A stretch of DNA of 64,000 bases from Mobula hypostoma (taxonomy: Eukaryota). Where the stretch lies: contig NC_086108.1 of assembly GCF_963921235.1 (NCBI RefSeq), positions 10,974,001 through 11,038,000 of the forward strand, read 5' to 3'. Shown here one piece after another: positions 22,173 through 59,726 of this stretch. Under the pieces are notes generated by a model. The model was given only the letters and a program-made list of their open reading frames with translations, was not told the DNA's origin and made no database searches. Every line of letters begins with the position of its first letter. The first letter of the stretch is position 1. A program made the position numbers and the translations under genes.

Positions 22173-23106
22173 CTTGAGATTACAGGCAGCCGCAAAACAA
22201 TAGAACCCATTAAAAAGAAGACTGTCAAATACCCAATAAGTTGAGTAAACCTTGTGGAGCGGTGAGCTGAACCAGCCCATCCCAGGGATTTCATACAATC
22301 CCTGATTTGAACGAAAGCACGGTCATTTTCTTGACTGCAATCACTGTCTCAAGTATATCCCTGTGGAATTACTTCCTACTTCTTACATCACTGGCGTTTG
22401 GGCAGCAATGAAGATCCTCCGTCTCTGGCAGCGTTCAGGGCTTCCTTCATCATGTCAGTAGCTTCCCCTCAGTTTTCACTAAACACAAAATACTCTGCAG
22501 ATGCTGGGGTCAAAGCAACACTCACAACACGCTGGAGGAACTCAGCAGGTTGGGCGGCATCCGTGGAAAAGATCGGTCGATGTTTTGGGCCGGAACCCTT
22601 CGTCAGGTCTGAAGAGAGAAGGGGCAGAGGCCCTGAAAAGAAGGTGAGGGGGAGGGTGGGAAGGAGAAGGCTGGTAGGTTCCATGTGAAAAACCAGTAAG
22701 GGGAAAGATAAAGGGGTGGGGGAGAGGAGGCAGGGAGGTGATAGGCAGGAAAGGTGAAGAAGGAATAGGGGAAAACACAATGGGTAGTAGAAGGAGGCGG
22801 AACCATGAGAGAGGTGATAGGCAGCTGGGAGAGGGGGCAGAGTGAAATAGGGATAGGGGAAGGGACGGGGAGGGAATTACCGGAAGTTGGAGAATTCTAT
22901 GTTCATACCAAGGGGCTGGAGACTACCTGGACGGTATATGAGGTGTTGCTCCTCCAACCTGAGTTTAGCCTCATCACGGCAGTAGAGGAGGCCATGTATG
23001 GACATATCTGAATGGGAATGTGAAGCAGAGTTGAAGTGGGTGGCAACCGGGAGATCCTGTCTGTTGTAGGCAACAGACAGGATCTTTCCATTCCGGGACA
23101 TCTCAA

Positions 23107-23838
23107 ATGCCCTCTTGCTTTAAGGATCTTGGTTTCCCTTCTGCTGTCATCAATGATGCCCTCACCCGCATCTCCTCCATTTCCCGCACTTCAGCCCTCA
23201 ACCCGTCCTCCCACCACCCCAACAGGGACAGAGTTCCCCTTGTCCTCACCTACCACCCCACCAGCCTCCGGATCCAGCACATTATCCTCCGCAACTTCCG
23301 TCACCTTCAACAGGACCCCACCACTAAGCACATCTTTCCCTCTCCAGCCCTCTCCGCTTTCTGGAGGGATCGGTCCCTCCGCAACTCCCTGATCTACATG
23401 TCCCTCTCGACGGATCTCCCACCCGGCACTTATCCCTGTAAGCGCAAGTGCTACACCTGTCCCTACACCTCCTCTCTTGCCACCATTCAGGGCCCCAAAC
23501 AGTCCTTCCAGGTGAGGCAAAACTTCACTTGTGAGTCTGTTGGGGTCATCTATTGCATCCGGTGCTCCCGGTGCAGCCTCCTCTACATCAGTGAAACCCG
23601 ACGCAGATTGGGGGACCGCTTCGTCGAGCACCTCCGCTCCGTCTGCCACAACAGACAGGATCTCCCGGTAGCCACTCACTTCAACTCTGCTTCCCATTCC
23701 CATTCAGATATGTTCATACATGGCCTCCTCTACTGCCATGATGAGGCTAAACTCAGGTTGGAGGAGCAACACCTCATATATCGTCTAGGTAGTCTCCAGC
23801 CCCTTGGTATGAACATAGAATTCTCCAACTTCCGGTAA
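23107..23838 (+). pseudogene. 5'-truncated PLE ORF: RT thumb, Cys-rich linker and GIY-YIG endonuclease (Neptune-like)
   Basis: RVPLVLTYHP, GTYPCKRKCYTC, VIYCIRCSRCSLLYISETRRRLGDRFVEH (YIG changed to YIS), LEEQHLIYRLGSLQPLGMN; open for 243 aa. Confidence 0.88.
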
Positions 23839-38600: not shown

Positions 38601-39609
38601 TTGATTCTTTTAAAATTCCATCCTTACTGGAATACATGGTAGTTGCCCACACATGACATCTCCCCCCACCACACAAGGGAGAGAGTAAGGCTGATCTCGG
38701 AAGGATAACTGCTGGCAGATTTTATACAATCTGCCGAAGGTATCAGTGTTCCAGGTCTTTCCACTCACTCTGCCTATCGTGTGAGGGGGTAGATTCTGCC
38801 TCACTGTGCCAGGAAAGGCTAGGAGGAGATGGGCTGAAGGTCCTGGACTTGTGTCTCGTTGACGTAGAAAGGGAAGAAGGAGAGGACCCAGGGGGAGGTG
38901 ATCGGCAGGTGAGAAGGGGTAAAAGGTCAGAGTATGGGGAGGGGGTGAACTTTGTTTACTGGAAAGAGAAATCAATATATTCATGCCATCAGCTTAGAGG
39001 CTATCCAGATGGAATGTAGGTGTTGCTCTTTCACACTGAGAGTGGCCTCATCTTGGCCACGTTTGGAGCACTGGCAGGTGTGGAATGCAACCGCTTATTA
39101 TAGAAGAAGAGAATTATGTTGCCTGGCCATCCATCGCTCAGGGCATAATGAAATTCTGCACCAGAGTGAAACTGTCCGTTTGATTTGCAAAGGGCATAAT
39201 TTGTTCCTTCACTCTCAGCAATAATGGGTTTCAGCTTGTCTTTTTTCAATAATATTCTATTACCAGACTATTTACAATACAGAGAGCCTTTATTGGCATT
39301 CTGCAAACATCTGTGATAATATTCGACTCCCATTAAAAATATACTGTCAGTGTGATTACAGGGGCCTGGATGCACATCGCGCTGTCTATCAATTAAACGG
39401 CACCTTTCTGATTCTAACCCACTTTATTTATCAATGATGATTACTTGCTCGCAGACACCCTGTTACACAACCTGGCGCCATGGGAGCAGAATTGTAAATG
39501 CGCTGTCTCCCCAGACATCCCTATGCTGAGAGGGCGTGTGAAGTGTTAGCCTCGAGTTCAAGAGCTGTGAGGTAATGTTGCAACTTCATAAGACCCTGGG
39601 TAGGTCACA

Positions 39610-39895
39610 CTTCCTCCAAGAGCAGCACAACCTCGCTGGAGGGCTTGGAGGCTTGCGTGCCTCAATGACCCGGAGAGATAGGCAGGCTGGAGTCAGGGTC
39701 TTGTGCTTTGGCTCTTGGTCGGGGTCACCCATGCCAAACAGGTCAAAGGCGAAAGGACAGACTAAGAGTGGGCCTCTGGTCATCCAGGTCAGAAGGTTGG
39801 GCTCGGGGCTACCAAACCTGACTGGTCAAAAAGAAGGTTCCGGAATCAACAACGAAGAATCCTGCTCTACAGACCGCGATGGAGGACCCCCGGTG
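39610..39895 (+). mobile_element. RTE-type non-autonomous 5' segment inside a CR1 3' end (39550-40155)
   Basis: GGAGGCTTGCGTGCCTCAATGACCC..GGCTGGAGTCAGGG..CACCCATGCCAAACAGGTCAAAGG, homologous to 24385-24490(-). Confidence 0.65.
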
Positions 39896-40165
39896 GAAAT
39901 AGCATCATTTTAAGGTGATTGGGTGGTGGTGGGGGTGGGGGAATGTCAGAGGTAGTTTTTTTACACAGTGAGTGGTGGCTGCACGAGGATGGTGATAGAG
40001 TTAGATACATCAGGGGCACTTAAGAAACGCACAGGCACATGGATGAAAGAAAATGCAGGTTGATGTTAGAGGAAAGGGTCTCGGAGTAGGTTTAGAGGTT
40101 TTGGCACAACATCATGGACTGAAGGGCCCATACTGTGCTCAGTTCTGTGTTCTACCTCAGTTCTA

Positions 40166-40449
40166 GTGTGTGGGAGTATTTGCTCACAGGGTTCGTGTGA
40201 AGCGTCTAGCGCAGTAGTGTAGCGGTGCTTGTAGTTAGTGCATGCTGCATACTGTATGCCGCACAGTGCTCTCTGCTTACAGCTATTGCCACTGGCTAGC
40301 CTTCTTAACAGAGGGTGAAAAGAGGAGCCGAGTGTGTAAGCCTCCTCCTGCCAGTACAGAGCCTCTCCACCACCAAGATTCCTGCAGTGCCTCCTCGGGG
40401 CCACACACAGAAACTGGGTATCTTACGGTCCCAGGCTAAACTACAGGGG
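40166..40449 (+). ncRNA. HDV-like self-cleaving ribozyme fold at the RTE 5' end
   Basis: P1 GUGUGUG 40166-72 / CACACAC 40402-08; P2 CCUGCAGU 40381-88 / ACUACAGG 40440-47; P3 GCC/GGC around L3 UCCUCGG; P4 CUGGG/CCCAG; J4/2 GCUAA with putative catalytic C40436. Confidence 0.75.
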
Positions 40450-41074
40450 ATCTCGGAGCAGCAGTGGGCCCCAGAGACATGCAGGCCCACCACTGTGTGG
40501 ACACGCCCTGGCGCCCGTCAGCCACTGTCTCAGCTATGGGCAAATAGCCCCACTGCCTTGTGGTAGGTCTGTTGAGACAAGGCTAAGGGAGCACACCCTG
40601 ACAGAAAAGCAATGTGCTGGCGGCGCGCCATAGGCAGGCCTTAACAGACCAAGGACCCGGCAGCCTCCTGCAGCCAAGATGTGGGACCGGTTGTCCTGGC
40701 ACCACCCTTGTCACCGGGATTTACCTCATCGTGGTGAAGATAGTGTTACTGGGGATGGTGCCCCCCCGTGGCACTTTAAAATCTTCCTTGCGCAGGTCTC
40801 CACCTCTGACCGCAGTGAACAATACCTGGACCTTACATATGGTTGAAGTCTGATGGCGATGGAGCTTCTGGGAGCGGGTACAAATGGACGGGGAGCTCTT
40901 AGTCAGAACCCTGCACGGCAACGGCATAGGATATTTGGTCGCTAGCAGCTGGGACTGGGTGGCAGCTGTTTTCAGTAGACCCCTGTGCGACTCAGCAGCC
41001 CTATTTAGGGACCGCACTGCTCACCCCAATTGGGGAAGGGCCTAGAAAAGGTGGCCTAAAAATCATATGGATAG

Positions 41075-44000
41075 GTTACTGCGCCTATCGAGTTATTCCA
41101 CTACTGCAGTCAAAGTAAGAAACAATACAACCTTAAACTGGCAACATGGAATGTAAGGACTCTCCTGGATTCGTGTGGCATCTCTGACAGACCTCACCGG
41201 AGAGCAGCCTTGATCGCTGCTGAGCTGAGGCGCTACAACAGCGACATTGCTGCCCTGAGTGAGACCAGGCTCCTGGATGAGGGCTCTTTAACAGAGGAAG
41301 GGATGGGTTACACCTTCTTCTGGAAAGGTTTTCCCCCAGGTGGACAACATCTCCATGGAGTAGGATTGCCCATCAAGAACACCTTTCTACCAAGTCTCAC
41401 AGAAACACCTGTTGGCATTAGTGAAAGACTAATGACTCTCCGTATCCCCCGGAAAAGCAACATTATACCACGCTTCTCAGTGCCTATGCACCAACTTTGC
41501 CATCTGAAAATGAGGCCAAGGAAGGCTTTTATCAGACATTGGATGAAGCTGTTTGCCGGATCCCTAGGAATGATAAGATCCTTTTGCTTGGGGACTTCAA
41601 CGCTAGGGTGGGCAGAACAACAGGATATAGAGTGGAGTGCTAGGTAGGCATGGTATTGGCAAGGTGAATGCAAATTGCATGAGACTACTTACTCTTTGCT
41701 CTGAACATAACCTTACCACAACCAACACCATCTTCCAGCAGAATGCAAAATATAAGACCTCGTGGATGCACCCTCGCTCTAAACATTGACACATGATTAA
41801 CTTCATCATTGTGAGACGTAGCGACATCAAGGATGTTCTCATCACCCGTGCTGTGAGAGGTGCAGAGTGCTGGACTGACCACCGTATGATTGTGGCCAAG
41901 CTCCATATGAAAGTGCGTCCCCCCTTGCGGCTACAAAAACCTAATAAAAAGTGGCTAAATTGCAACCGCCTGAGAAACACAGAAGCAAGAAGTGAGTTTC
42001 AATGCATCCTAGCTGAGAAACTAAGGGAGTTGGAACCTTGTCTGAGCTCAGAAAATACCATGGAATGACAGTGGACATATATCAGCTCTGCGCTCTATGA
42101 GGTAGCAGCCTAATCCATCGGCTACAAGAGCTGGAACCACCAAGACTGGTTTGACGGTAACTCAGACACCATCCACAACTTGCTTAAGGACATGCACAAA
42201 GCACACCGGGCAACTTTAGACAACCCTTCATCCACCAGTATCAGGCAGCATTGGCAGGCAGCTCGGAGGAAAGTGCAAAAGGCAATATGGGCCATATAAA
42301 ATGTGTGGTGGACTGAAAAGGCACATGAAATCCAGTCCTTTGCCACTAATAATGACATGCATAAATTTACAATGCTGTCAAAACCATCCACGGCCCAATA
42401 AATCAATGCATTACTTCCCTGAAAACAGCAGATGGTCTAACACTTCTGAAGAATCAGAATACCATTCTGCTGAGGTGGGCTGAGCATTTTAACACGCTGC
42501 TTAATCAGGACTCTGATGCAGACCCCACCATCCTGGACAAACTGCCTGAACTTCCTCCTATCCATGACCTCAGTCTACCACCACCCTTGCAGGAGGTTCT
42601 ATCAGCTGTCCATTCCCTTAAGAACAACCAGTCCCCTGGCACTGACAATATCCCTGCTGAGTTACTGAAGAACGGAGGGTACATGTGTATGCACACCCTC
42701 TACCAGTACATCACCAAGGCCTGGACTGATGAGAGCATCCCACAACAATGGAGAAACGCAAACATCGTTGTCATTTATAAGAACAAGGGTGACACGGCCA
42801 TCTGCAGCAATAGTAGGGGCATATCACTCCTTTCTGTTGCTGGAAAGGTCCTGGCTAAGGTGATGCTTCAGAGACTCATCAGCAACATCACTGAGTCAAT
42901 GCTGCCTGAATCACAGTGTGGATTTAGGAAGAACAGGAGCACGATCGACATGTTCTTTACAGCCCAGCAGCTTCAGGAAAGTGCCGGGAGCAACATCAGG
43001 ACCTGTCGACCTCTCCAAAGCATTCGATACTGTGCAAAGAGAGCTCTTATGGGAGGTCCTCCTCAGGTTTGGCTGTCCCAATAAATTTGTTAACATCCTC
43101 CACCAGTTCCACGATGGGATGACTGCTCGGGTGACCATAGGAGGACAAGAGTCCGAGCCCTTCCTTGTATGCACAGGGGTGAGGCAGGGGTGTGTGCTAG
43201 CGCCAGTGCTCTCTAACATCTTCCTCTTGTGTGTTCCCAAGCTTCTCCACAACGAGATTGAAGACAGCAGCGGTGTGGCAGTGGACGTCAGATTAGATGG
43301 CAACCTCTTTGACATCAGGAGGCTCCACGCAACCACCAAACTCCGTAGAGAGCGGGTCCTGGAGCTGCAGTATGCAGACGACTGTGCTCTTGTGGCCCAT
43401 ACTCTGGAGGATCTTCAGACTGTCCTTGATGTGGTGGTGAGAGCGTACAGCAGGATGGCGCTGACTGTCAATACCACCAAGACAGAAGTGGTTTGCCAAT
43501 GGAGTACCAGTCTCCCACCCACTCTACCTGCCTTCACTGTTGGTGATGAAAAGCTGTCAGTAGTGTCATCTTTCAAATACCCGGGGAGTGTTCTCTCTGA
43601 GGATAGCGGCATTTACAACGACATCGAGAGCCACATTAAACAGGCATCAGCTGCCTTTGGGAGACTTCAGCGTAGAGTATTTCAGAACAGGAGCCTTCGT
43701 CCCTCCACAAAGGTCACCGTATACCGAGCGGTTTATGTCACCACCCTCCTTTATAGCTGTGAAGCTTGGGTAACCTACAGCCGTCACATCAAGTCCTTGG
43801 AGCGCTTCCACATAACCTGGGAATTACCTGGCGTGAGCGGGTGCCTCACACTGAAATACTTGTAAAGACCAACTGCAGGAGTATTGAGGCCATGATCACC
43901 CAGTGCCAGCTGCAGTGGCTGGGGCACGTGATAAGGATGCCCCCATGTCTGCTACCCCACAGTGTGTTATACAGCCAGCTACATCATGGTCGATGCTCAG

Positions 44001-44290
44001 CTGGAGGGCTGAAGAAGCACTATAAGGATCAGATGAAGAATGCTTTAAGGAAGTGCAAGATCAGACCTGAGGACCTGGAGGAGGCTGATGCTGACCGTAC
44101 CACTTGGTGACAGCTGTGTAGGGACGGGGTTCATATTCTGGAAATGGAAAGAACAACCAGAAGACAGCAGAAGAGAGCCAGGAGAAATGCAGCCATGGGT
44201 GCTACCACTACCACATATACATGTCCCACCTGCGATAGAGCTTGTGGGTCCAGGATAGGACCAGGACCGGAGAGTCATTAAAGATCTCAC
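41075..44290 (+). pseudogene. RTE single ORF (AP endonuclease plus reverse transcriptase), with frameshifts and stops
   Basis: LATWNVRTLLD..DIAALSETRL..GYTFFWKG; LGDFNARVG; SPGTDNIPAE; RGISLLSVAGK; ESQCGFR; DLSKAFDTV; GVRQGCVLAP; ELQYADD; WLGHVIRM; CPTC. Confidence 0.92.
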
Positions 44291-44721
44291 CGTTAAAGGA
44301 GTGGACGTCTTCATCGGATTTCGATGGACAACCAAAGAAGACGAAGTTCTACCTCCTGAAGTTGGTTCCCTCACCGGCATCTTTTTAAACTGGGGTGGTG
44401 GTGGGGGGTGGGGGGAAGGTTCCAATGAACTGATTGGCCAGGTCAAAGGCCCTGTGTCATATTCAGCAACGCTGATCTGGAGGCTAATCCCTCAGCTCTG
44501 TGGAGGGTATTGATGATGTTTAGTTCTATAATCTGCCATTCTTGAATCTTTCAGAGAACTTTCACTCCATCCTTCCCAGAAGCATTGAGCCTGCTGGCCA
44601 GTGAGGGGAACGTGAATGGGCCTAATTCAATCCAACATCTTCTACAGTGATGTTGGTACTCATTCAGGGGAAGTGGGGTCACTGGGAGAAGCAGCAATTT
44701 ATCCACCTCCAATCACTGATA

Positions 44722-45757: not shown

Positions 45758-46751
45758 TAGAAACATAGAAACATAGAAAGTAGATGCAGGAGTAGGCCAT
45801 TCGGCCCTTCAAGCCTGCACCGCCATTTATTATGATCATGGCTGATCATCCAACTCAGAACCCCGCCCCAGCCTTCCCTCCATACCCCCTGACCTCTGTA
45901 GCCACAAGGGCCATATCTAACTCCCTCTTAAATATAGCCAATGAACTGGCCTCAACTATTTCCTGTGGCAGAGAATTCCACAGATTCACCACTCTCTGTG
46001 TGAAGAAGTTTTTCCTAATCTCGGTCCTAAAAGGCTTCCCCTCTATCCTCAAACTGTGGCCCCTCGTTCTGGACTTCCCCAACATCGGGAACAATCTTCC
46101 TGCATCTAGCCTGTCCAATCCCTTTAGGATCTTATACATTTCAATCAGATCCCCCCTCAATCTTCTAAATTCCAACGAGTACAAGCCCAGTTCATCCAGT
46201 CTTTCTTCATATGAAAGTCCTGCCATCCCAGGAATCAATCTGGTGAACCTTCTTTGTACTCCCTCGATGGCAAGGATGTCTTTCCTCAGATTAGGGGACC
46301 AAAACTGCACACAATACTCCAGGTGTGGTCTCACCAAGACCTTGTACAACTGCAGTAGTACCTCCCTGCTCCTGTACTTGACTTCTCTCGCTATAAATGC
46401 CAGCATACCATTCGCCTTTTTCACCGCCTGCTGTACCTGCATGCCCACTTTCAATGACTGGTGTATAATGACACCCAGGTCTCGTTGCACCTCCCCTTTT
46501 CCTAATCGGCCACCATTCAGATAATAATCTGTTTTTTCTATTTTTGCCACCAAAGTGGATAACTTCACATGTATCCACATTAAATTGCATCTGCCATGAA
46601 TTTGCCCACTCACCCAACCTATCCAAGTCACCCTGCATCCTCTTAGCATCCTCCTCACAGCTGACACTGCCACCCAGCTTCGTGTCATCCGTAAACTTGG
46701 AGATGCTGCATTTAATTCCCTCATCCAAGTCATTAATATATATTGTAAACA
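45758..46751 (-). mobile_element. Young 5'-truncated CR1 (subfamily B)
   Basis: FTIYINDLDEGIKCSISKFTDDTKL; LYKVLVRPHLEYCVQFWSP; (TTTCTATG)n tail. Confidence 0.95.
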
Positions 46752-48473
46752 TTTTTTGTGGGCATACTCAATAAATCTATAGAATAGTAATAATAGCAGA
46801 ATCAATGAAAAATTGCCCAACTTTGGTGTTCAGTCAGGGTTCAGAAGACAACAAACTGTGCAAATACAAAAATAAAGGAATAATAATAAATAAATAGCAA
46901 TAAAGATCAAGAACATGAGATGAAGAATCCTTGAAAGTGAGTCCATTGGTTGTGGGAACATTTCAATGATGGGGCAACTGAAGTTGAGTGAGGTTATCAC
47001 CCTTGATTCAAGAGCCTGATGGTTGAAGGATAATGACCTAGTGGTGTGAGGGCTTTACTCGTGATGGCCTACTCTGATCTGATTCAATGATCTACAGACT
47101 CACTTTCAAGGACTGTGAAGAGATGTAACCAATAGGGCTTCACACCAGGTACTGAAGAACTGGGTGAAGTGTGAGACCAACAGATGACTTCCCTCTATGT
47201 TGGTTTCTTCCCAGAATTTCATTATGATTGTTAAGGCGAAAGCAAAGAAACCAAGGTTTGATTGATTTAAGCACTGGGCTGAGTTTGAATTTTGGGTACA
47301 GGCCAAATCAAGGCAGCGAGGTTCAGGCCTCAGAGCATATTGAAATGACTGATGTTTGGGCGATGATTTAACCACTCAGCCAGGTTGCAAAGGTCAGGGT
47401 GTTGGGGCCCGAGGTGAAGGACTGGCCAGTTCATCTTGCTGTATTTTTTCAGATCTGAGTTGAACTAAGGGTCTGAGGCCAAAGTGTCTTTGTGGGCTTT
47501 GGTTCAGAACATTGTTTGCTTGCATTTACTGTTAACATGATTTGTTTGTTTTTTCTCTGCGCTTTGGGTGTTTGACAAATTTTGGGTTTCTTTGTTTCAT
47601 GGCTGCACGTTAGGAGACAAATCTCAAGGTTGTATATGTACTTTGAACTTTGAACTTTTACCACATCACCATGAAGACTGAAAACTAACCAAGATTTATG
47701 AGTACAGGTTAGGGATGTAGAAACCTCTTCTGGGCCTTCGAGAGTCAGGTCAGCCTGACACTAGTAAACACTTCATCAAAGGCAACACCGGGAACAGGAA
47801 AAAGGTTTCACTTGTTCAATGGCTGAATAATTTAAATTCATCGACTCATTAGTTTGATAAACTGTAAGATGCTTGAGGATCATTAAAGATTTAAGCAGAC
47901 TACACTATCCTTAGCTGGAAGAATTAAAGTTTTGAACCGGTATTTAATATTTAATAAATTGCAGATGCTTCACCTTGTTCATCACCGCTGGTTTATTAGG
48001 GAAAGCTTGCTAATTGGCGTAATGTTCTTAATCACATCAAGGTTGAAAACTCAATTTTTCAGTCCACACATGTTCCATGCAGGGAGTCCACACTCAATGA
48101 GAAAGGTGGGGTTGAGGTGTTTACTGATAAAGTCAAGTCAAGTTTATTATGATTTAACTATATAATGTATACCGCCAAACGAGACATCGTTTCTCCAGAC
48201 TAGGGCATAAAGCACAGTTGTACACATTACACACAGGTAACTCACAATAGCTTAGGGAAGTAAGAATTAAATCTACAAATGAATTACATATAGATCAAAA
48301 AAAGTAAAGTGCATAAATTAAATATTGTGTAGGGTACAGTACAAATTATCCGGTGACACTTTGAATGTGATGCTGTAAGGCATTCAGAAACCTAATGGCC
48401 TGAGGGAGGAAATTGACCATTCTTGTTTTTATGCATCAGAGGCTCCTGCCTGATAGTAAAAAGTCAAGGAGGA

Positions 48474-49070
48474 TAGACGGTATATGAGGTGTTGCTCCTC
48501 CAACCTGAGTTTAGCCTCATCATGAAACCCGACGCAAATTGGGGGACCGCTTCGTCGAGCACCTCCACTCCGTCAGCCACGACAGACAGGATCTCCCGGT
48601 AGCCACCCATTTCAACTCTGTTTCCCATTCCCACTCAGATATGTCCATATATGGCCTCCTCTACTGCCATGATGAGGCTAACCTCAGGTTGGAGGAGCAA
48701 CACCTCATATACCGTCTAGGTAGTCTCCAGCTCCTTGGTATGAACATAGAATTCTCCAACTTCTGGTAATTCCCTCCCCCTCCCTTCCTCTATCCCTATT
48801 TCACTCTACTCCCTCCCCCAGCTCCCTCATTGTTCCGCCTCCTTCTTCTACTACCCATTGTTTTCAGGGCTATGATGTCAATGCTTCCCCTCCCCCACCC
48901 CTTTGTCTTTCAAATTACTGGTTTTTCAACTGATGCTACAAGCATTCTTCGAGTCCTTCCCCATCTTTCATTCTTCAGACCTGACGAAGGGTTCCGGCCC
49001 GAAACATCGACTCATCGTTTCTGACTGATGCTGCCCGACCTGCTGAGTTCATCCAGCATACTGAAAGTGT
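48474..49070 (+). mobile_element. 5'-truncated PLE with a 51-bp inverted 5' segment and a hammerhead
   Basis: ORF 48539-48769 is the GIY-YIG C-terminus; 48474-48524 is the reverse complement of 48668-48718 with 1 mismatch. Confidence 0.88.
48976..49012 (+). ncRNA. Minimal hammerhead motif; core intact, stems I and III partly decayed
   Basis: CAGAC-CUGACGA-A-GGGU(UCCG)GCCC-GAAA-CAUC-GACU. Confidence 0.6.
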
Positions 49071-49391
49071 TTCCTAGGATAGCTAATGTTGTTCCATTAT
49101 TTAAGAAAGTTTCTAAGAATAAACAGGAAATTGTAGGCCAGTGAGCCTGACATGAGTAGTGGGAAAGTTATTGGAAGGTAGTCTTGGGGACCAGGTGTAC
49201 AAGTATTTGCATAGAGAGAGACTGCTTAGGATAGTCAACATGGCTTTGCATGTGATAGGTCATATCTAGCCAATCTATAGATGTTCTCAAGGTAAAAGTC
49301 TATAGATTCTTAGGCGGTAACAGGCGAGGCGAAGAAAGTTTGGTTTTTCCTGTTTTCCATTTTTTCCTGTTCTTACAGGAGAGGGGGAAGT

Positions 49392-50327
49392 ATGAGTGTG
49401 AGGGCAGCTTGTTGTTCTCAGTGTCGGATGTGGGAGGTCCTGGAGTCTCCAAGCCTCCCGGACGTCCACATCTGCACCAGGTGCACTGAGCTGCAGCTCC
49501 TAAGGGACCACGTTAGGGAACTGGAGCTGCAGCTCGATGACCTTCTTCTGGTCAGGGAGAGTGAGGAGCTGATAGAGAGGAGTTACAGGCAGGTGGTCAC
49601 ACCGAGGCCACAGGAGGCAGACAAGTGGGTCACGGTTAGGATGGGGAAGGGGAAGAGTCAGGTACTAGAGAGAACCCCAGTGGCTGTGCCCCTTGACAAT
49701 AAGTACTCCTGTTTGAGTACTGTTGTGGGGGGGGACAACTTACCTGGGGGAAGCAACAGTGGCCGTGCCTCCGGCACAGAGTCCGGCCCTGTAGCTCAGA
49801 AGGGTAGGGAAAGGAAGAGGAGGGCAGTTGTGATAGGGGACTTGATAGTTAGGGGGTCAGATAGGCGATTCTGTGGATGCAGTCCGGAGCCCCGGATGGT
49901 AGTTTACCTCCTTGGTGCCAGGGTCCGGGATATTTCTGATCATGTCCAAGATATCCTGAAGTGGGAGGGTGAGGAGCCAGACCTCGTGGTACATATAGGT
50001 ATCAATGACATAGGTAGGAAAAGGGAAGAGGTCCTGAAAGGAGAATATAGGGAGTTAGGAAGGGAGTTTAGAAGAAGGACCACAAAGGTAGTAATCTCAG
50101 GATTACTGCCTGTGCCACGCGACAGAGAGAGTAGGAATGGAATGAGGTGGAGGATAAATGCGTGGCTGAGGGATTGGAGCAGGGGGCATGGATTCAAGTT
50201 TCTGGATCATTGGGACCTCTTTTGGTGCAGGTGTGACCTGTACAAAAAGGACGTGTTGCACTTGAATCATAGGGGGACCAACATCCTGGCGGGAGCTCGG
50301 AGACTTTGGCAGGGGCGGTCAAATTAG
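49392..50327 (+). pseudogene. CR1 ORF1p (zinc finger/coiled coil plus SGNH esterase); ORF2 absent
   Basis: CSQC..CTRC, coiled coil LQLLRDHVRELELQL, blocks IGDL(GDS)IVRG, GARV, HIGIND(GTND), ISGLLP, DVLH(DGLH). Confidence 0.88.
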
Positions 50328-51039
50328 AACGGAAAATACGGAATCTGGATCAGATTCAGGTGTAATATCACTGGCATATGGCGTGAAATTATATATATAT
50401 GTGTGTGTTCTTGAATCATCAAGTATTGGAACATAAATATGATAGGGAAAAAGGCAGAAACAATTTGTGAGAAGAACTGGGAAGGGCTGATAAATCTCTG
50501 AGCTCAGGGGGGAACATGAGATGTGAGTTGCAGGAGGGCGAAACTCACGGGTGTGAGATGGATTACTGAGTCCAGAACACGTGTCTGGTTCGAGGCAAAA
50601 GGTTTCAGAATTGAGAGAGAGTGTCAGGACAGATTGTCAGAGAGCAAGACTCCTTGGGCAATAATACCAGGCCAAAGTCAATCCTGCTTCTGCATGTGGA
50701 GAAGGGAAAACAGGGGGAGGTGGCGACAGAGCCCCCCACCCTATTTTTCTGCTCACTTCTCTTGTTCCACAAACGTTCCCCATTCCCAGTCTTCCTGCTG
50801 AGGACAGATACTGAATAAATCAGTTTATTAACAGAGATCCACCGTCTATTGGTTAATTCAATTTTCTTACAATGAACCACAGATGCTATGGTGCAGAGAA
50901 TGTCCTTATTATACAACAGCACTCTCAGCTGCAGAGAACACTAGCACACAGTTAGGATGCAGCCTTGGGCCTGGCATTGCTGCACTCAGTGCCGAGCACT
51001 CCCGGTGATGAAAACAGAAGCAGGAAAGATAAGGATTCA

Positions 51040-51169
51040 GAGAAAATAGAGAGAGGAAGAGAGTGAGAGAGCGAGAGAGAGAGAGAGGGAGAAAGAGGGA
51101 GAGAGAGACAAAGAGAGAGAAAGACACAGTGACAGAGAGAGAGCAGAGAGACAGGGAGACACACCACAG

Positions 51170-51227
<58 letters not shown>

Positions 51228-51270
51228 TCAGAAATAGAGAAAGAAAGACAGAGAGAAGAAGGGAGAAAGA
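51040..51270. repeat. (GA)n/(CA)n/(TA)n microsatellite complex; GA-rich sequence continues at 54105-54205
   Basis: Direct inspection. Confidence 0.9.
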
Positions 51271-51272
51271 AA

Positions 51273-51436
51273 GAATGGGGTCTTTTAAGAGACTCCTGGA
51301 TAGGTACATGGAGCTTAGAAAAATAGAGGGCTATGGGTAACCCTAGGTAGTTCTAAGGTAAGGACATGTTTGGCACAGCTTTGTGGGCCGAAGGGCCTGT
51401 ATTGTGCTGTAGGTTTTCTATGTTTCTATGTTTCTA
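51273..51436 (+). mobile_element. Short CR1 3' end
   Basis: TTTAAGAGACTCCTGGATAGGTACATGG..GGGCCGAAGGGCCTGT..(TTTCTATG)n. Confidence 0.8.
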
Positions 51437-51476
51437 ATAGAAGAGAGATAGAAATATACATATAAACAATAGAATG

Positions 51477-54100
51477 AAACATAGAAACATAGAAAATAGG
51501 TGCAGGAGTAGGCCATTCGGCCCTTCGAGCCTGCACCGCCATTCAGTATGATCATGGCTGATCATCCGACTCAGAACCCTGTACCAACCTTCCCTCCATA
51601 CCCCCTGATCACTTTAGCCACAAGGGCCATTTCTAACTCCCTCTTAAATATAGCCAATGAACTGGCCTCAACTGTTTCCTGTGGCAGAGAATTCCACAGA
51701 TTCGCCACTCTCTGTGTGAAGAAGTTTTTCCTAATCTCAGTCCTTTATCCTCAAACTGTGACCCCTTGTTCTGGACTTCCCCAACATCGGGAACAATCTT
51801 CCTGCATCTAGCCTGTCCAATCCCTTTAGGATTTTATACATTTCAATCAGATCCCCCCTCAATCTCCTAAATTCCAACGAGTATAAGCCTAGTTCATCCA
51901 GTCTTTCTTCATATGAAAGTCCTGCCATCCCAGGAATCAATCTGGTGAACCTTCTTTGTACTCCCTCTATGGTAAGGATGTCTTTCCTCAGATTAGGGGA
52001 CCAAAACTGCACACAATACTCCAGGTGTGGTCTCACCAAGACCTTGTACAACTGCAGTAGTACCTCTCTGCTCCTGTATTCGAATCCTCTCGCTATAAAT
52101 GCCAGCATACCATTCGCCTTTTTCACCGTCTGCTGTACCTGCATGCCCATTTTCAATGACTGGTGTATAATGACACCCAGGTCTCGTTGCACCTCCCCTT
52201 TTCCTAATCGGTCACCATTCAGATATTATTCAGATAATAATCTGTTTTCCTGTTCTTGCCACCAAAGTGGATAACTTCCCGTTTATCCACATTAAATTGC
52301 ATCTGCCATGAATTTGCCCACTCACCTAACCTATCCAAGTCACCCTGCATCCTCTTAGCATCCTCCTCACAGCTAACACTGCCACCCAGCTTCGTGTCAT
52401 CCGCAAACTTGGAGATGCTGCATTTAATTCCCTCATCCAAGTCATTAATATATATTGTAAACAACTGGGGTCCCAGCACTGAGCCTTGCGGTACCCCACT
52501 AGTCACTCCCTGCCATTCTGAAAAGGTCCCGTTTATTCCCACTCTTTGCTTCCTGTCTGCCAACCAATTCTCTATCCACATCAATACCTTACCCCCATAC
52601 CGTGTGCTTTAAGTTTGCACACTAATCTCCTGTGTGGGACCTTGTCAAAAGCCTTTTGAAAATCCAAATATACCACATCCACTGGTTCTCCCCTATCCAC
52701 TCTACTAGTTACATTCTCAAAACATTCTATGAGATTCGTCAGACATGATTTTCCTTTCACAAATCCATGCTGACTTTGTCCGATGATTTCACCACTTTCC
52801 AAATGTGCTGTTATCACATCTTTGATAACTGACTCCAGCAGTTTCCCCACCACCGATGTAGGGCTAACTGGTCTATAATTCCCTGGTTTTTCTCTCTCCC
52901 TCCTTTTTTAAAAAATGGGGTTACATTAGCCACCCTCCAACCCTCAGGAACTAGTCCAGAATCTAAAGAGTTTTGAAAAATTATCACTAATGCATCCATT
53001 ATTTCTTGGGCTACTTCCTTAAGCACTTTGGGATGCAGACCATCTGGCCCTGGGGATTTATCTGCCTTTAATCCCTTCAATTTACCTAACACCACTTCCC
53101 TACTAACATGTATTTCGCTCAGTTCCTCCATCTCACTGGACCCTCTGTTCCTTACTATTTCTGGAAGATTATTTATGTCCTCCTTAGTGAAGACAGAACC
53201 AAAGTAATTATTCAATTGGTCTGCCATGTCCTTGCTCCCCATAATCAATTCACCTGTTTCTGTCTGCAGGGGACCTACATTTGTCTTTACCAGTCTTTTC
53301 CTTTTTACATATCTATAAGAGCTTTTACAGTCCGTTTTTATGTTCCCTGCCAGTTTTCTCTCATAATCTTTTTTCCCCTTCCTAATTAAGCCCTTTGTCC
53401 TCCTCTGCTGAACTCTGAATTTCTCCCAGTCCTCAGGTGAGCCATTTTTTCTGGCTAATTTGTATGCTTCTTCTTTGGAATTGATACTATCCCTAATTTC
53501 CCTTGTCAGCCATGGGTGCACTACCTTCCTTGATTTATTCTTTTGCCAAACTGGGATGAACAATTGTTGTAGTTCATCCATGCGATCTTTAAATGCTTGC
53601 CATTGCATATCCACCGTCAATCCTTTAAGTGTCATTTGCCAGTCTATCTTAGCTAATTCCCGTCTCATACCTTCAAAGTTACCCTTCTTTAAGTTCAGAA
53701 CCTTTGTTTCTGAATTAACTATGTCACTCTCCATCTTAATGAAGAATTTCACCATATTACGGTCACTCTTACCCAAGGGGCCTCTCACGACAAGATTGCT
53801 AATTAACCCTTCCTCATTGCTCAATACCCAGTCTAGAATAGCCTGCTCTCTAGTTGGTTCCTCTACATGTTGGTTCAAAAAACCATCCCGCATACATTCC
53901 AAGAAATCCTCTTCTTCAGCACCCTTACCAACTTGGTTCACCCAATCAACATGTAGATTGAAGTCACCCATTATAACTGCTGTTCCTTTATTGCACACAT
54001 TTCTAATTTCCTGTTTAATACCATCCCCAACCTCACTACTACTGTTAGGTGGCCTGTACACAACTCCCACCAGCGTCTTCTGCCCGTTAGTGTTATGCAA
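51477..54100 (-). mobile_element. CR1 subfamily B, 2.6 kb, truncated within the APE domain
   Basis: VGVVYRPP, IMGDFN, EEPTREQAILD, KSPGPDGLHP, QHGFVKGKSCLTNL, YLDFQKAFDKV, GVPQGSVLGP, FADD; a few frameshifts. Confidence 0.96.
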
Positions 54101-55276
54101 TGAGACAGTATAGAAAGTGAAGAGAGCGAATAGAGAGATAGTGAGGAGAGAGTGAGAGAAAGGGGGTGACGAGAGAAAGCAAGGAACTGAGAGAGAGAGA
54201 GAGGGGATCTGAAGAATATTATCCTTGATGTCCACTTTTGCCAGGGAGCTGGGAAGAGGTCGACATGTTGCAGGATCTCATTTTGAGCATTTATCAATGG
54301 GCACCGGGCTTGAAGAAACGTCCCTCTCATGGAAAGTTCAGCATAAGCACCCTACCCTCTCTACCCTGAGCACCTTAGCAAACAAACGCCCCAGAAATCA
54401 ACCTCCGAGTGTGCGCAATCTCAGCTTCGCCCGTGTACTGTAGTCAGCGAACAATGTCAGAGTGAGCAAATCCCTGCTATCCCCTGGAGATACATAGGAG
54501 CCAAAGAGTCATAGAAAAGTACAGCACAGAAACAGGGTCTTTGGCCCATCTGGTCCGTGCCGAGCCACAGAGACAGAGCCAGGATCTATGCGAAGCCTGA
54601 CCAGACCCGAGGAACACCTGGTGCAGGGGCTTGGGAAAATGGGCTGTGTGGGAATTAAACTTTAAATACTGTACAGAATTGAGATGGAAAGAACACATTT
54701 GGAATTAAGGTAGGGAGATGAAATATTAATCTAATGAATGATAAAGTATTTTAAACCGATATTGAAATTTGATGGATTCATAATCCACATTAAATTAGTT
54801 TTCTTAAGGCTGAATAATTTGCTGGGAAATAATTATGACTCAGTATTGCCATTAAAACTACTTACACTTCAATAAGCACTAGATACTCAGGCTTTGAATA
54901 TATCAATACATAGCTATATATTATATATACTGTATACTTCTTACTGTAACTTACAGATTTAATTATTATATATTGCAATGTACTGCTGCCACAAAACAAC
55001 TAATTTCATGACATATGCCAATGATATTAAAAGTGATTCTGAATCCGATTTGGAATTTGCGTTAGAGTGCAGACCATCAAACGAAGCTCTCGCAGTTTGT
55101 TAAATGTGTTCTGGTCCTCTTCTTGTTGATCTTTTCTGTGATTGTAATCGGGATGCTCTGGATGACACAGCGCTGGATCGAACTGAACTGAGGTGAGCAG
55201 AATATGGCTGGACTCGAGTTTACGGGTGAGTGTTTTGCAGTCTCGTTTTCTCTGCAATTTGTTGGGGGAGGTTTGG

Positions 55277-55575
55277 TCATAGAGTCATAGAAGAGTACAG
55301 CACAGAAACAGGCCCTTCAGCCCATCAAGTCCATGCAGAACAATTTAAACTGTCTCCTCCCATTGACGTTCATCGGGACCTCAGCCCTCCATACCCCTCC
55401 CATCCTTGTACCTATCCAAACTTCTCTTAAATGTTGAAATCGAGCTCGCATGCTCCACTTGCACTAGCAGCTCATTCCACACTCTCACCACCCTCTGAGT
55501 GAAGAAGTTCCCCTCGTGTTCCCTTTAAGCCTTCACCTTTCACACTTAACCCATGACCTCCAGTTGTAGACCCAC
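55277..55575 (-). mobile_element. CR1 3' end
   Basis: Reverse-complement homolog of 55820-56103. Confidence 0.8.
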
Positions 55576-55579
55576 CAAA

Positions 55580-56103
55580 AAAGGTGTAAATAAGGTTGAA
55601 AGAGTACAGAGAAAAGTTACAAGGATGTTGCTGGGACTGGAGGACTTGAGTTATAAGTAAAGATTGAATAAGTTAGGACTTTATTCCTTGAAATGTAGAG
55701 GATTGTGAGGAGATTTGATAGAGGTATACAAAATTATGAGGGGTATAGATAGGGTAAATGCAAGCAAGCTTTTTCCACTAAGGTTGGATGGGACGTTCCC
55801 TCCCCCCCCCCCCCGTAACTAGAGATCATAGGTTAACGGTGAAAGGTGAAATGTTTAAGGGGAACTTGAAGGAGAGCTTTTTCACTCTGAGTGTCATGAA
55901 AGTGTGGAACGAGCTGCCAGCACAAGTGGTGCATGCAAGCTCAATTTCAACTTTTAAGAGAAGTTTGGATAGGTATGTGGATGGTAGGGGTATGGAGGGC
56001 TATGGTCCTGGTGCAGGCCAATGGGAGTAGGCAGATTAAATGGTTCAGCATGGACTAGATAGGCGGAAGGGACTGTTTCTGTGCTATACTTTTCTATGAT
56101 TCC
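55580..56103 (+). mobile_element. CR1 3' portion
   Basis: ERVQRK..RMLLGL; HRLTVKGEMFKGNLKESFFT..WNELP. Confidence 0.85.
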
Positions 56104-56494
56104 ATACTTAAGACACAGATAGATAGATTTTTCCACATCGGGGAATTTACGGCTCTGGGGAAAAGACAGGTAGGTGGAGCTGAAAGCATAGCCATGTTCA
56201 CCACGATCTCATTGAATGACAGAGCAGACTTGATGGGCCGAATGGCTCCTAGTTCTTATTCCTTCTGTTCCCCTGATCAGCATGGGTGTATTGAGCTGAA
56301 TGGCCAGTTCTATTCTGTCTGATTCGATGACTCAAGTCTAACAAGCCCTGGATGGAGTTGTAACATCAGTCACCTAGCTCGGTCAGTGTTTTCCTAGGAG
56401 GAAAACAGGAAGGTAAGATTAGATTTATTTACCATGTGTACATCAAAATATGAAAATGTACATTGTAATGCCATTGTAAATAGTAGAAAAAAAT

Positions 56495-56835
56495 TTCCTT
56501 TCCCCCCTCCCCACATCTTTTATTCCCACTCTGGATCTTTACCTCTCTCATCTGCCTATCACCTCCCCCTGGGTCTCCTCCTCCTCCCCTTTCTCCTGTG
56601 GCCCACTCTCCTCTCCTATCAGATTCTTTCCTCTCCAGCCCTTTACCTTTCCCAACCACCAGGCTTCTCCTATCACCTTTCAGCTGCCTCCTTCCCCTCT
56701 TCCTACCTTCTTATTCTGGCATCTTCCCCCTGCCTCTCTCATCCTGAAAAAAGGTCTGGGCCTGAATCGGTGACTGTTTATTTATTTCCGTAGACGCTGC
56801 CTGACCTGCTGAGTTCCTCCAGTGTTTTGTGCGTC
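56495..56835 (+). mobile_element. PLE 3' UTR and terminus with a decayed hammerhead
   Basis: Pyrimidine-rich UTR, then CCTGAAAAAAGGTCTGGGCCTGAA and GACGCTGCCTGACCTGCTGAGTTCCTCCAG. Confidence 0.7.
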
Positions 56836-56899
56836 TTGCAGTGAAACGCATCATTTGCATCAACAACCAGTGTAGTCAGAGGATGTGGTGAGGCAGCCC

Positions 56900-57090
56900 A
56901 CAAGTGTTGCCGTGTTTCCGATACCAGCATCTCACTAACTCTAATCGATACGTCTTTGGACTGTGGGAGGAAACCAGGGCACCTGGAGGAAACACTCACA
57001 GTCAAAGGGGGAGTGTACAAACTCCTTACAGGCAATGGCAAGAAATGAACTTGGATCACTGGCGCTAAAATAACTTTATGCTAACTGCAA
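56900..57090 (-). mobile_element. tRNA-derived SINE fragment (V-SINE/HE1-like)
   Basis: TCTTTGGACTGTGGGAGGAAACC shared with about 10212-10235. Confidence 0.55.
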
Positions 57091-57092
57091 TA

Positions 57093-58429
57093 CACCCTAT
57101 CCTCATTATATGCGTCTTCAGACAATGCGGATTCACAGTTATGTGAGGAACCTATTTCTACCAACTTCTCATTATATGCATCCAAAACTCACAGTTATGC
57201 GAGGAGCACTGCTTTCCGGCCAATGCAAGTCACGTGCGCACGCCTTAAGGATGAAAAAACTGTGTCAGGTTTCAAGGCAGCAAAGGATAGATTGACTTTG
57301 CTTATATGTTCCAATGCCGAAGGAGACTGTAAGATGAAGCCTCTCTTAGTTTACCATTCACTAAACCCCTGTGCTCTTAAGGGTTTGAGTAAGAATCTGC
57401 TTCCTGTCCACTGGGCAGCTAACAAGAAAGCATGGGTCACTGGTCAAATCTCTGAAGATTGGTTTGTTAATCATTATGCTGTGAGCCTGAACGCTACTGC
57501 TGGGAATGGAATCTTGCCTTTAAAGTTCTTTTATTGCTTGAAAATGCGCCAGCCCATCCTAAACATCTGGACAGCATTCATCCTAACATAACAGTGCATT
57601 TCCTACCACCTAACATAACATCGCTGATTCAGCCACTCGACCAAGGTGTGATATCCACATTCAAGGCGTATTTTTTATGGCGAACTGTCTCTCAGATGCT
57701 GCAAGCAACAGACGATTTTGAAAATCCTGGGAGTTTATCAATGGTGAGGGAATGGTGGAAGTCTTTCAACAACATTGATGAATCCTGGAAAGAGGCCAGG
57801 TCTTCCACTCTGAAGCAACTGGCAGAATTTTTTAAGGCTACGGAACACTTGGCACAAATGGCTATGGACATGGACCCAAGTTTAGAACGGAGTCAGCATT
57901 TCAGTCGTTCCCCGCAGACAGGCCTTCTTCCCTACAAGCAAATTCATGCTGAAAAACAAAATGCTGCCAAGCAAACAATCCTCACCACTTTCTTCAAACC
58001 GGAGTCATCTCCTGCTGCCGGCGGTACTGAGAGTTCTGTGAGTCTTCCTTCACCCCTTGCTGTCCTTGATGATCCCGACGATACACAAACATCCACCTTA
58101 TCCATGTAAAGCTGCCCGACACCACAACAACCCCTCATATCCCGGAGCGAACACACCTGCCACTGTTGGTGAGTACTGTACACCAGAAGATGTTAACTTT
58201 CTGTGACTTACTACATTGAATATTACCTTAAATTGATGAAATATAATACAAATGTTGCCTCGTGGTACTGCTTTTGTGTTGTATTGGTATGAAAATGTGA
58301 ATAAATTACAGATAAAACATATTTAGGAAGCCCTCAAGAACGCATCCCTATTTTTTCCATTTAAATAATTATTCACATTATGTGTCGACTTCGAGGAACG
58401 TATCCCCCGCATATAACGAGGATAGGGTG
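57093..58429 (+). mobile_element. Internally deleted Tigger/pogo DNA transposon
   Basis: 22-bp TIRs CACCCTATCCTC(A/G)TTATATGCG with TA on the left; GFKAAKDRLTLL..NKKAWVT..LENAPAHP..FLPPNITSLIQPLDQGVI. Confidence 0.92.
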
Positions 58430-58802
58430 TTATCAAGGATCCCACCCATCCAGCATCCTCTTTGACTTTCTACCATCAGGCAGGAGACTCTGATGCATAA
58501 AGACAAGAACGGTCAGGATGGGAAACAGCTTCTTCCCTCAGGCCATGAGGGTTCTGAACTCCCTGCCGCATCACAGTCAAACTGTCACAGGATAATTTGT
58601 CCGGTACCCTACAATATTTAACTTATGTACTTTACTTTGTTAATCTGTGCGTAATTCATTTGTAGACTTTATCTTTACTTCCTAAGTTATTATGTATATG
58701 TGCGTGTTATGTGTACTATTATGCTTTACTCCCTGGTCCAAAGAAATGTCTCTTTTGACATTGTATATGTATATATTTAAATGACAATAAACTTGACTTG
58801 AC
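58430..58802 (+). mobile_element. Rex1/Babar-type 3' end
   Basis: CTACCATCAGGCAGGAGA..AACAGCTTCTTCCCTCAGGCCATGAG; AATAAACTTGACTTGACT tail. Confidence 0.7.
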
Positions 58803-59726
58803 TATAGGGTGTCATTCTGGGGATTGTTCAGAAGCCAGGGAAATGATGAAAAGCTGATAAAGGGATAATGAAGACAGCAGACTGGGGCCGAGATGGAATA
58901 TGGATCAGCCATGATGAAATAGCAGTGAAAACTAGATGGGCCAAATGGCCTAATTCTATTCCTATGGCTTATGGTCTTATGGCTTGAGCCATTGAAAAGA
59001 CAACAGATGATTTTCAGAATCAGAAATCAGGTATAATATCACCAGCATGCTGTGAAATTTGTTAATCTTGTGGCAGCAGTACAATGCAATACATAATAAT
59101 GGAGAAAATAAACTGTGAATTGCAGTAAGTGTATAGACTATACATATTAGATGGTTAAATTAAATGAATAGTGCAAAAATGGAAATAAAGAAAGTAGTGG
59201 GGTAGTGTTCATGGGTTCAATGTCCATTCAGAAATCAGATGGCAGAGGAGAAGTTGAGTGTGTGTCTTCAGGCTTCTGTACCTCCTCCCTGATTGTAGCA
59301 ACGAGAAGAGTGTATGTCCAAGGTGATGGGGGTCCTTAATGATGGATGCCGGCCTCCTGGAGGCATCATTCCTTGAAGATGTCCTGGATACTACAGAGGA
59401 TAATGCCCATGATGGAGCTGACTAAGTTTACAACTTTCTGCAGCTTATTTCAATCATGTGCAGTAGTTCCCCGCGCGCACCCCCCCCCCCATATCAGACG
59501 GTGTTGCAGATAGTTAGAATGCTCTCCATGATACATCTGTGAGTGCCTTTGGTGACATACGAAATCTCCTCAAACTCCTGATGAAATATAACCACTGTTG
59601 TGCCGTCTTTGCAGAAGCATCGATGTATTGGGCCCAGGACAGATCCTCAGAGATGATGACACCCAGGAATTTGAAATTGCTCACCCTTTCCATTTCTGAT
59701 CCCTCTTTGAGGGCTGGTGTGTGCTC

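Follow-up and report, generated by a model that had tools for sequence, protein, structure and literature searches.

A predicted HDV-like ribozyme heading an RTE-type LINE family of Mobula hypostoma

The window analysed here is a stretch of 64,000 nucleotides of the Mobula hypostoma genome (NC_086108.1, positions 10,974,001 to 11,038,000). It harbors on its plus strand a full-length but broken, RTE-like non-LTR retrotransposon of 4.18 kb (40166..44344), delimited by direct reading and by the domains of its relatives. A 5' UTR of about 900 nt is followed by a single endonuclease/reverse transcriptase (RT) frame, a short 3' UTR and a GAA-type tail. The remains of the frame (41078..44260, plus strand) are spread over six segments in three frames, with 59-79% identity to P0004, an intact relative used as protein reference. 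This one frame encodes an AP-type endonuclease and an RT, and the relatives of the element (1009-1105 aa) contain the endonuclease and RT families only. A single ORF with an N-terminal AP endonuclease and an RT, without ORF1 and without RNase H, is a trait of RTE elements, as in the single-ORF definition of the clade found in the available text of PMC13295347 and PMC13708176, and so is the short 3' UTR ending in a GAA-type, microsatellite-like tail; Vingi elements also have a single ORF, as do RTE elements and the present family. Among 23 family copies retained with a target-site duplication (see below), T|A is found at the duplication start in 14, against a background of 5.9%, matching the RTE insertion signature of a duplication that starts with A after T (PMC13295347, available text); TTT, as the T-stretch of RTE elements about 10 nt upstream of the duplication, was seen in only 5 of the 23. 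A sequence-only reading had called the element a full-length RTE LINE; its full length and the RTE traits of frame, tail and T|A start hold, and by anatomy and insertion signature it can be regarded as an RTE-type LINE, the trees built here containing no named RTE references. The upstream target-site duplication (40149..40165, plus strand) can be read either as 10 bp (40149-58) followed by seven extra bases or as 7 bp (40159-65), and both readings recur right behind the 3' tail (44345-55). The duplication AGTTCTA placed directly before the element by the same reading is therefore possible but ambiguous, since the 10-bp reading competes with it.

The flank at 40100-40160 belongs, from depth and loose ends, to a different high-copy repeat, which has a short tandem unit and of which the flank forms the 3' tail; the element was inserted in or beside this repeat. 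One contig of run X5 (organism B, depth 3.8) covers both the flank and the element start (40100-40250) with three differences, one of which disrupts the second pair of the P1 helix described below, suggesting that the insertion is likely common to a related species. Elsewhere in the window, long open frames at 45796-61380 and 23035-23838 look like further retroelement fragments, presumably CR1-like RT tails and a Cys-rich endonuclease-like frame, to label them by appearance. With respect to the reading frame, an AUG before the endonuclease is absent in the family (window 41040-41100). Of the 34 copies that can be read, 27 have an in-frame TAG at 41072-74, and 25 of 27 copies have TTG where the relative L100 has ATG, which points to non-AUG initiation or to a parent dependent on the protein of another element. 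The UTR behind the ribozyme (40450-41070) of the window element visibly resembles that of L100, and motifs close to the start of the frame are seen again in distant relatives.

The first 284 bases of this dead RTE-type LINE are predicted to fold as an HDV-like double-pseudoknot ribozyme, in which the five HDV-type helices (P1, P1.1, P2, P3 and P4) follow each other in the nested order. All parts lie on the plus strand. P1 pairs 40166..40172 with 40402..40408, the latter strand located by direct reading and family alignment; G40166 opens the element and is also where the cleavage product is predicted to start, so that P1 is a 7-bp helix starting with G at the element's 5' end (6-7 bp in HDV-like ribozymes). 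The 5' strand of P2 (40379..40388, 10 nt; core 40381-88, extendable to 40379) faces 40440..40449 (core 40440-47), with a C.A mismatch at 40443; T40379 is private to the window copy, all 55 other copies having C. P3 (40389-91/40399-401) and its 7-nt loop L3 (40392-98) occupy 40389..40401, the 3' strand of P1.1 lies at 40409..40410, and the P4 hairpin (40414..40434) has strands 40414-18/40430-34. J4/2 (40435..40439) holds C40436, the putative catalytic base from knowledge of the HDV family. This C is kept in 52/55 copies, and in eight of eight aligned elements the catalytic C and the last A of J4/2 are invariant. The two reverse-wobble bases of L3 are likewise kept, U40392 in 54/55 copies and G40397, a CpG site, in 45/55; a role of the conserved L3 G in the reverse wobble is described in the available text of PMC3774820. 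The claim of the sequence-only reading that every HDV element is present in the right order was correct at each of its positions on direct reading.

A descriptor tolerating one P1.1 change, run as that reading had proposed, found a single site in the window with 40166 as the sole P1 partner, and none on the minus strand. The background is a mean of 0.14 sites per shuffled 64-kb strand (100 shuffles), so the motif match alone is only modestly above chance; the case is strengthened by the position at the start of the element and by covariation in relatives. A scan of 39500-41500 with Rfam at E up to 10 gave no HDV-family match and a scan of the window no twister match, and the whole 295 nt, folded without pseudoknots, showed no greater stability than shuffled versions (z 0.28). 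The Rfam HDV models likely miss the window because they expect a short J1/2 and nest P1 around P3. These models are particular compact members rather than a definition of the class. For the Rfam families RF00094 (HDV ribozyme) and RF02682, P3, L3, P1.1 and J4/2 are in agreement with the model consensus given for the compact relative L140, which RF00094 matches end to end at 36.4 bits (gathering score 50). This was the one sub-threshold HDV match in an Rfam scan of 14 relatives; a scan of 20 further relatives gave nothing at gathering level, and no twister match was present in the 34 relatives scanned.

Protein alignment provided 78 metagenome loci, of which the 63 with sequence ahead of the reading frame were scanned with a scored descriptor that gives the window 20.5. 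Scores of at least 20 were obtained in 9/63 sense 5' regions, 0/63 reverse strands and 0/63 coding regions; this threshold was chosen after the scan, and below 16 there is no separation from controls. All nine matches lie 560-760 nt before the reading frame. An earlier strict descriptor (3/63 relatives versus 1/63 reverse strands, 0/63 coding regions and 2/189 shuffles) was too strict to inform, and the P1 strands it chose far upstream in L100 and L168 could be fortuitous, the P1 of L168 being re-placed by eye beside P1.2. With a model made from eight cores, a further six were picked up in 5' regions (E under 0.05), together with an odd match, L145 (E 0.017), seemingly inside a reading frame. 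Altogether a core was recognised, in several cases by eye, in 17/63 relatives and in 13/38 of those with at least 800 nt upstream; that most relatives have no recognised core is explained in part by truncation.

The pairings of the core covary among these relatives, as the sequence-only reading had asked of P1-P4. In the alignment of eight cores, some rows of which have P2 shifted by one column, 81.9% of cells are paired and two-sided changes occur in 9/20 pairs; the covariation score of 0.382, against 0.188 in shuffled alignments, was reached by 0/500 shuffles, the statistic ignoring kinship. P4 has 97.5% of cells paired with two-sided changes in 2/5 pairs, P3 95.8% with a G-C/A-U exchange, and compensatory changes are found in P2, P3 and P4 among divergent RTE-like relatives. 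As for P1, the 5' strands of relatives differ in sequence and yet complement their own 3' partners; they were placed by eye, with independent support only for L144/L104, L151, L140 and L106. L100 has two P1 candidates, and L136 pairs at 4/6 positions. L144 and L104, two copies of another family, part company, as judged by eye, at the G-run of the P1 5' strand. Relatives that have kept the catalytic-site bases encode proteins 44-80% identical to P0004.

Between P1 and P2 lies a J1/2 of about 205 nt. Folding prediction places in it a helix P1.2, which starts directly after P1 (40173..40176, plus strand) and ends a few bases before P2 (3' strand 40363..40371, plus strand). The window copy retains 4 bp of it (with 40365-68), and three other short-start copies have lost it. 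The common family start has the same seven P1 bases and is then 4 nt longer than in the window copy, which, like three others, misses one short-tandem-repeat unit. When J1/2 is folded alone, P1.2 has 8 bp in 7/7 long-start copies, a value matched by 1/100 shuffles in each of the two copies tested. An automatic search for P1.2 over 450 nt in relatives gave chance helices scoring as high as real ones. Together, P1.2 and the extended P2 are predicted to hold J1/2 closed.

The family also indicates which peculiarities of the window copy represent damage. At 40408-10, 55 other copies read CGG (21), TGG (16), CAG (14), GGG (3) or TAG (1). G is thus found at 40409 in 40/55 copies, and it is the majority base there in contigs of all four runs examined, from four other organisms. 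Since TGG and CAG are both products of CpG decay, the parent had GG at P1.1, and the AG of the window copy reflects a single CpG-type change at A40409, as had been proposed subject to a family consensus. P1.1, complete in the family, is reduced to one pair in the window copy. Where relatives have kept a single P1.1 pair (L134, L144 and L151), it is the pair lost here, suggesting that the window copy is likely impaired. This part of the earlier impairment claim stands as probable, whereas the C.A mismatch in P2, also invoked, is family-wide (A at 40443 in 49/55 other copies, G in 6) and therefore no defect peculiar to the window copy; evidently it did not stop the spread of the family. With one P1.1 pair, half of P1.2 and a lost reading frame, the window copy is likely slow or dead. 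On a strict test of intactness 24/73 cores pass, and ten copies also have intact P1 and P1.2 starts. The first P1 pair is mostly G-C in the family and G.U in relatives with a placed P1. T occupies 40408 in 17/55 copies, whereas six other CpG sites show TG in only 2-9/55; this excess, which gives a G.U first pair, suggests that some parent copies may have carried T.

J1/2 further contains a predicted three-way junction (40291..40355, plus strand) with an outer stem (40291-96/40350-55), a stem a (40299-305/40310-16) and a stem b (40322-27/40342-47). Across seven sequences, 94.8% of its cells are paired with two-sided changes in 10/17 pairs, and the bases of the joining strands are invariant; 0/500 shuffles reach its covariation score, and slid controls pair at 42-55%. 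A model of the junction recovered only its training sequences among 79 sources and scored 53-54 bits on three of four further stretches of the M. hypostoma genome, and a loose genome pattern for it gave fewer matches than its control. The stretches recovered, to which the loose pattern had nevertheless pointed, belong to a separate family of about 600 nt (1792 candidates; L245-L247, L249-L278, for example G000:C1:29327200-29328200). This family shares the junction, the L3 of its HDV-type core measures 8 nt, and over about 300 nt it shows 70% similarity to the window element. Most of its copies begin with an incomplete P1 5' strand, the full 7 nt being present in 1/30, with the anchor misplaced in several rows. 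As to known motifs, the junction was rejected as a hammerhead or twister, since Rfam gave no such match and it lacks the hammerhead core; for L139, an Rfam match of int-alpA (E 0.44, 25.7 out of 35.8 bits) was taken as chance.

On a quick endonuclease tree of 54 rows, without named references and with L152 left out, the seven junction carriers need five changes, at least three of which strong branches impose, and shuffled labels cluster just as well (180/500). This scattered distribution suggests that the junction either has an old origin with frequent losses or has passed from lineage to lineage. A hairpin insert of the junction is common to L106 (1768-1849), L136 (675-772) and L139 (42-123), and the L106 protein groups with those of L104 and L144, which both have a short J1/2, hinting that 5' heads may have been exchanged between lineages. 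We suggest only tentatively that the junction is an ancient module within the P1.2-closed J1/2 that moves along with the ribozyme head from one RTE lineage to another and has a second job, such as cleavage tuning, binding of the element protein for 5' joining, or ribosome recruitment. If so, a tertiary peripheral domain would be conserved in a ribozyme class thought to need a simple helix there, and ribosome recruitment would serve an uncapped RNA whose frame, in the window family, has lost its AUG.

The 5' boundary of the family coincides with the predicted cut. In a search of the same genome with 40100-40700, of which the best 40 of 1470 candidates were scored, 32/39 other matches begin at the equivalent of 40166, and the upstream flanks of family copies (30 loci) are unrelated to one another. 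A query with the core only, for which 30 of 40 matches were assigned loci, gave 22/29 copies starting at this position and the others between 40168 and 40306. An exact 22-base pattern inside the element, downstream of its start, had 42 matches in the genome; in the 30 examined, conservation reaches the first G of the family, 14 bases before the pattern anchor (20/30), and from two bases beyond this G outward no base exceeds 15/30. Full-length copies reaching well upstream of G40166, a possible refutation named by the sequence-only reading, were thus looked for, and conservation was found to end at the first G. Of 76 distinct family loci, 42 have a 3' end and 29 a candidate duplication; after removal of the window, three low-complexity and two doubtful cases, 23 target-site-duplicated copies were kept, among which the start falls exactly on the first P1 base in 9 and no more than 1 nt from it in 14 (range of start positions 11-27, versus 14 for the first P1 base). 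As most sister copies begin at or next to the predicted cut, the element likely trims the start of its own RNA. A T precedes the first G by one base in 19/27 copies (35% background, p 2e-4), in part as shared target bases and in part as additions, an enrichment that fits a strict cut-at-G model only through junction formation.

Such a boundary might instead reflect transcription initiated at G40166 from an internal promoter, with the HDV-like fold as a relic or used just for translation or protein binding, and some non-LTR elements do start transcription at their precise 5' end (PMC3774820, available text). We consider this improbable: although the starts of the second family rarely contain the whole P1, the boundary coincides with the opening base of a 7-bp helix, the other strand of which is 236 nt distant, and elements as divergent as those described above have retained the catalytic-site bases. 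The T ahead of the first G resembles the pyrimidine-purine step of initiator-like sequences and would suit a promoter. The extra bases at the junctions of copies vary (T, AT, GAT, GAC) and a G one base upstream of the first P1 base is rare (3/27), unlike the cap copying, with its upstream G, expected for L1. The two might also occur together, as in L1Tc, for which a dual promoter and ribozyme is reported in the available text of PMC8256844.

The compact fold put forward in the sequence-only reading, with the P1 5' strand at 40332-38 and a cut about 165 nt inside the element, fares worse and is very unlikely to be the active one. Six of its seven pairs are possible, the motif is kept in 43/55 copies, and compact forms exist in the relatives L140 and L151, but 0/29 copies of the core-only query start at 40332, the site lies in the loop of stem b of the covarying junction, and its counterpart in relatives does not track their P1 3' strand. 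Chance complementarity between a GT-repeat start and an AC repeat within a structured UTR is hardly credible and already largely refuted by the descriptor controls (both 0/63 on the scored descriptor) and the core covariation: both P1 strands are dinucleotide repeats, the loose descriptor has the background given above and the window has no Rfam match, yet in relatives with a non-repetitive P1 the architecture is retained, and its distance to the reading frame is the same.

At the level of sequence comparison, it is thus confirmed that a real HDV-like ribozyme fold marks the 5' end of this RTE-type LINE family. In active parents, this ribozyme very probably cut just before G40166 and thereby set the 5' end of copies. 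The parent RNA would fold as a double pseudoknot, P1.2 and the extended P2 would "pinch" J1/2 closed as in drz-Agam-2, and C40436, if it acts like its HDV counterpart, would be the catalytic base for cleavage before G40166. The RNA would be released uncapped from longer transcripts by this cut and reverse-transcribed to its cleaved 5' end, which may then be joined imprecisely, by microhomology or with untemplated bases.

The host of drz-Agam-2 is an RTE element. This ribozyme of Anopheles gambiae shares with that of the window the nested double pseudoknot, a large J1/2, P1.2 and an extended P2, and in such large HDV-like ribozymes P1.2 together with the extended P2 speeds cleavage almost a thousandfold (PMC4908430, available text). 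In contrast, the J1/2 of the window, of about 205 nt, has a three-way junction, whereas in the same text P1.2 is a helix and a junction is not mentioned. The predicted ribozyme of the window family also differs in that its first P1 pair is mostly G-C. HDV-like ribozymes located at 5' ends of RTE elements are established (PMC6765202, PMC5786205 and PMC3774820, in their available parts), and RTE ribozymes cleave at the 5' junction of the element (PMC3774820, same parts); like these known R2 and RTE ribozymes, that of the window sits exactly where a non-LTR element has its 5' junction. Drosophila R2 is cleaved at its own 5' end and has variable junctions with untemplated bases and microhomology (PMC3774820, available text), a variability matched by the junctions of the window family. 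In active R2 of silkmoths, J1/2 measures 216-498 nt and a 35-nt part of it is required (PMC6765202, PMC5786205, PMC3774820, PMC8256844, available text); their loops have little conserved sequence, according to these texts, whereas the junction found here covaries across distant elements. Perere-3, an RTE element of Schistosoma mansoni, carries Twister T-variant ribozymes (PMC8501958, available text), a different class with the same inferred job of processing the 5' end of RTE-clade RNA.

The hosts named in the available parts of PMC6765202, PMC5786205, PMC3774820 and PMC8256844 include mosquito, sea urchin, lancelet and lamprey, and no cartilaginous fish. No paper on an RTE ribozyme of cartilaginous fish was found in the accessible literature, which included parts of PMC7761336, PMC8501958, PMC10879173 and PMC13708176 and did not extend to the founding papers. 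Likewise, the junction was not found in print in this literature, which comprises neither the figures nor the supplements of the founding RTE-ribozyme papers, and the supplement of Kojima 2018 gave no useful match to four 8-nt motifs.

A ribozyme at the 5' end of RTE elements being already known, the present case extends this arrangement to a vertebrate RTE-type family in which the genomic evidence for the cut site is unusually clear, and the conserved junction of J1/2 is what it adds. Such large HDV-like members are missed by standard Rfam scans. As RTE elements are under development for use in gene insertion (PMC13708176, available text), knowing the folds of their 5' UTRs is of practical value. 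The natural occurrence of intact and damaged copies of one family permits a direct test of the P1.2 "pinch" model, and the conserved junction, which is the part worth bench work, offers a concrete target for the role of long J1/2 inserts. Finally, the missing start codon of the family bears on how uncapped retrotransposon RNAs are translated.
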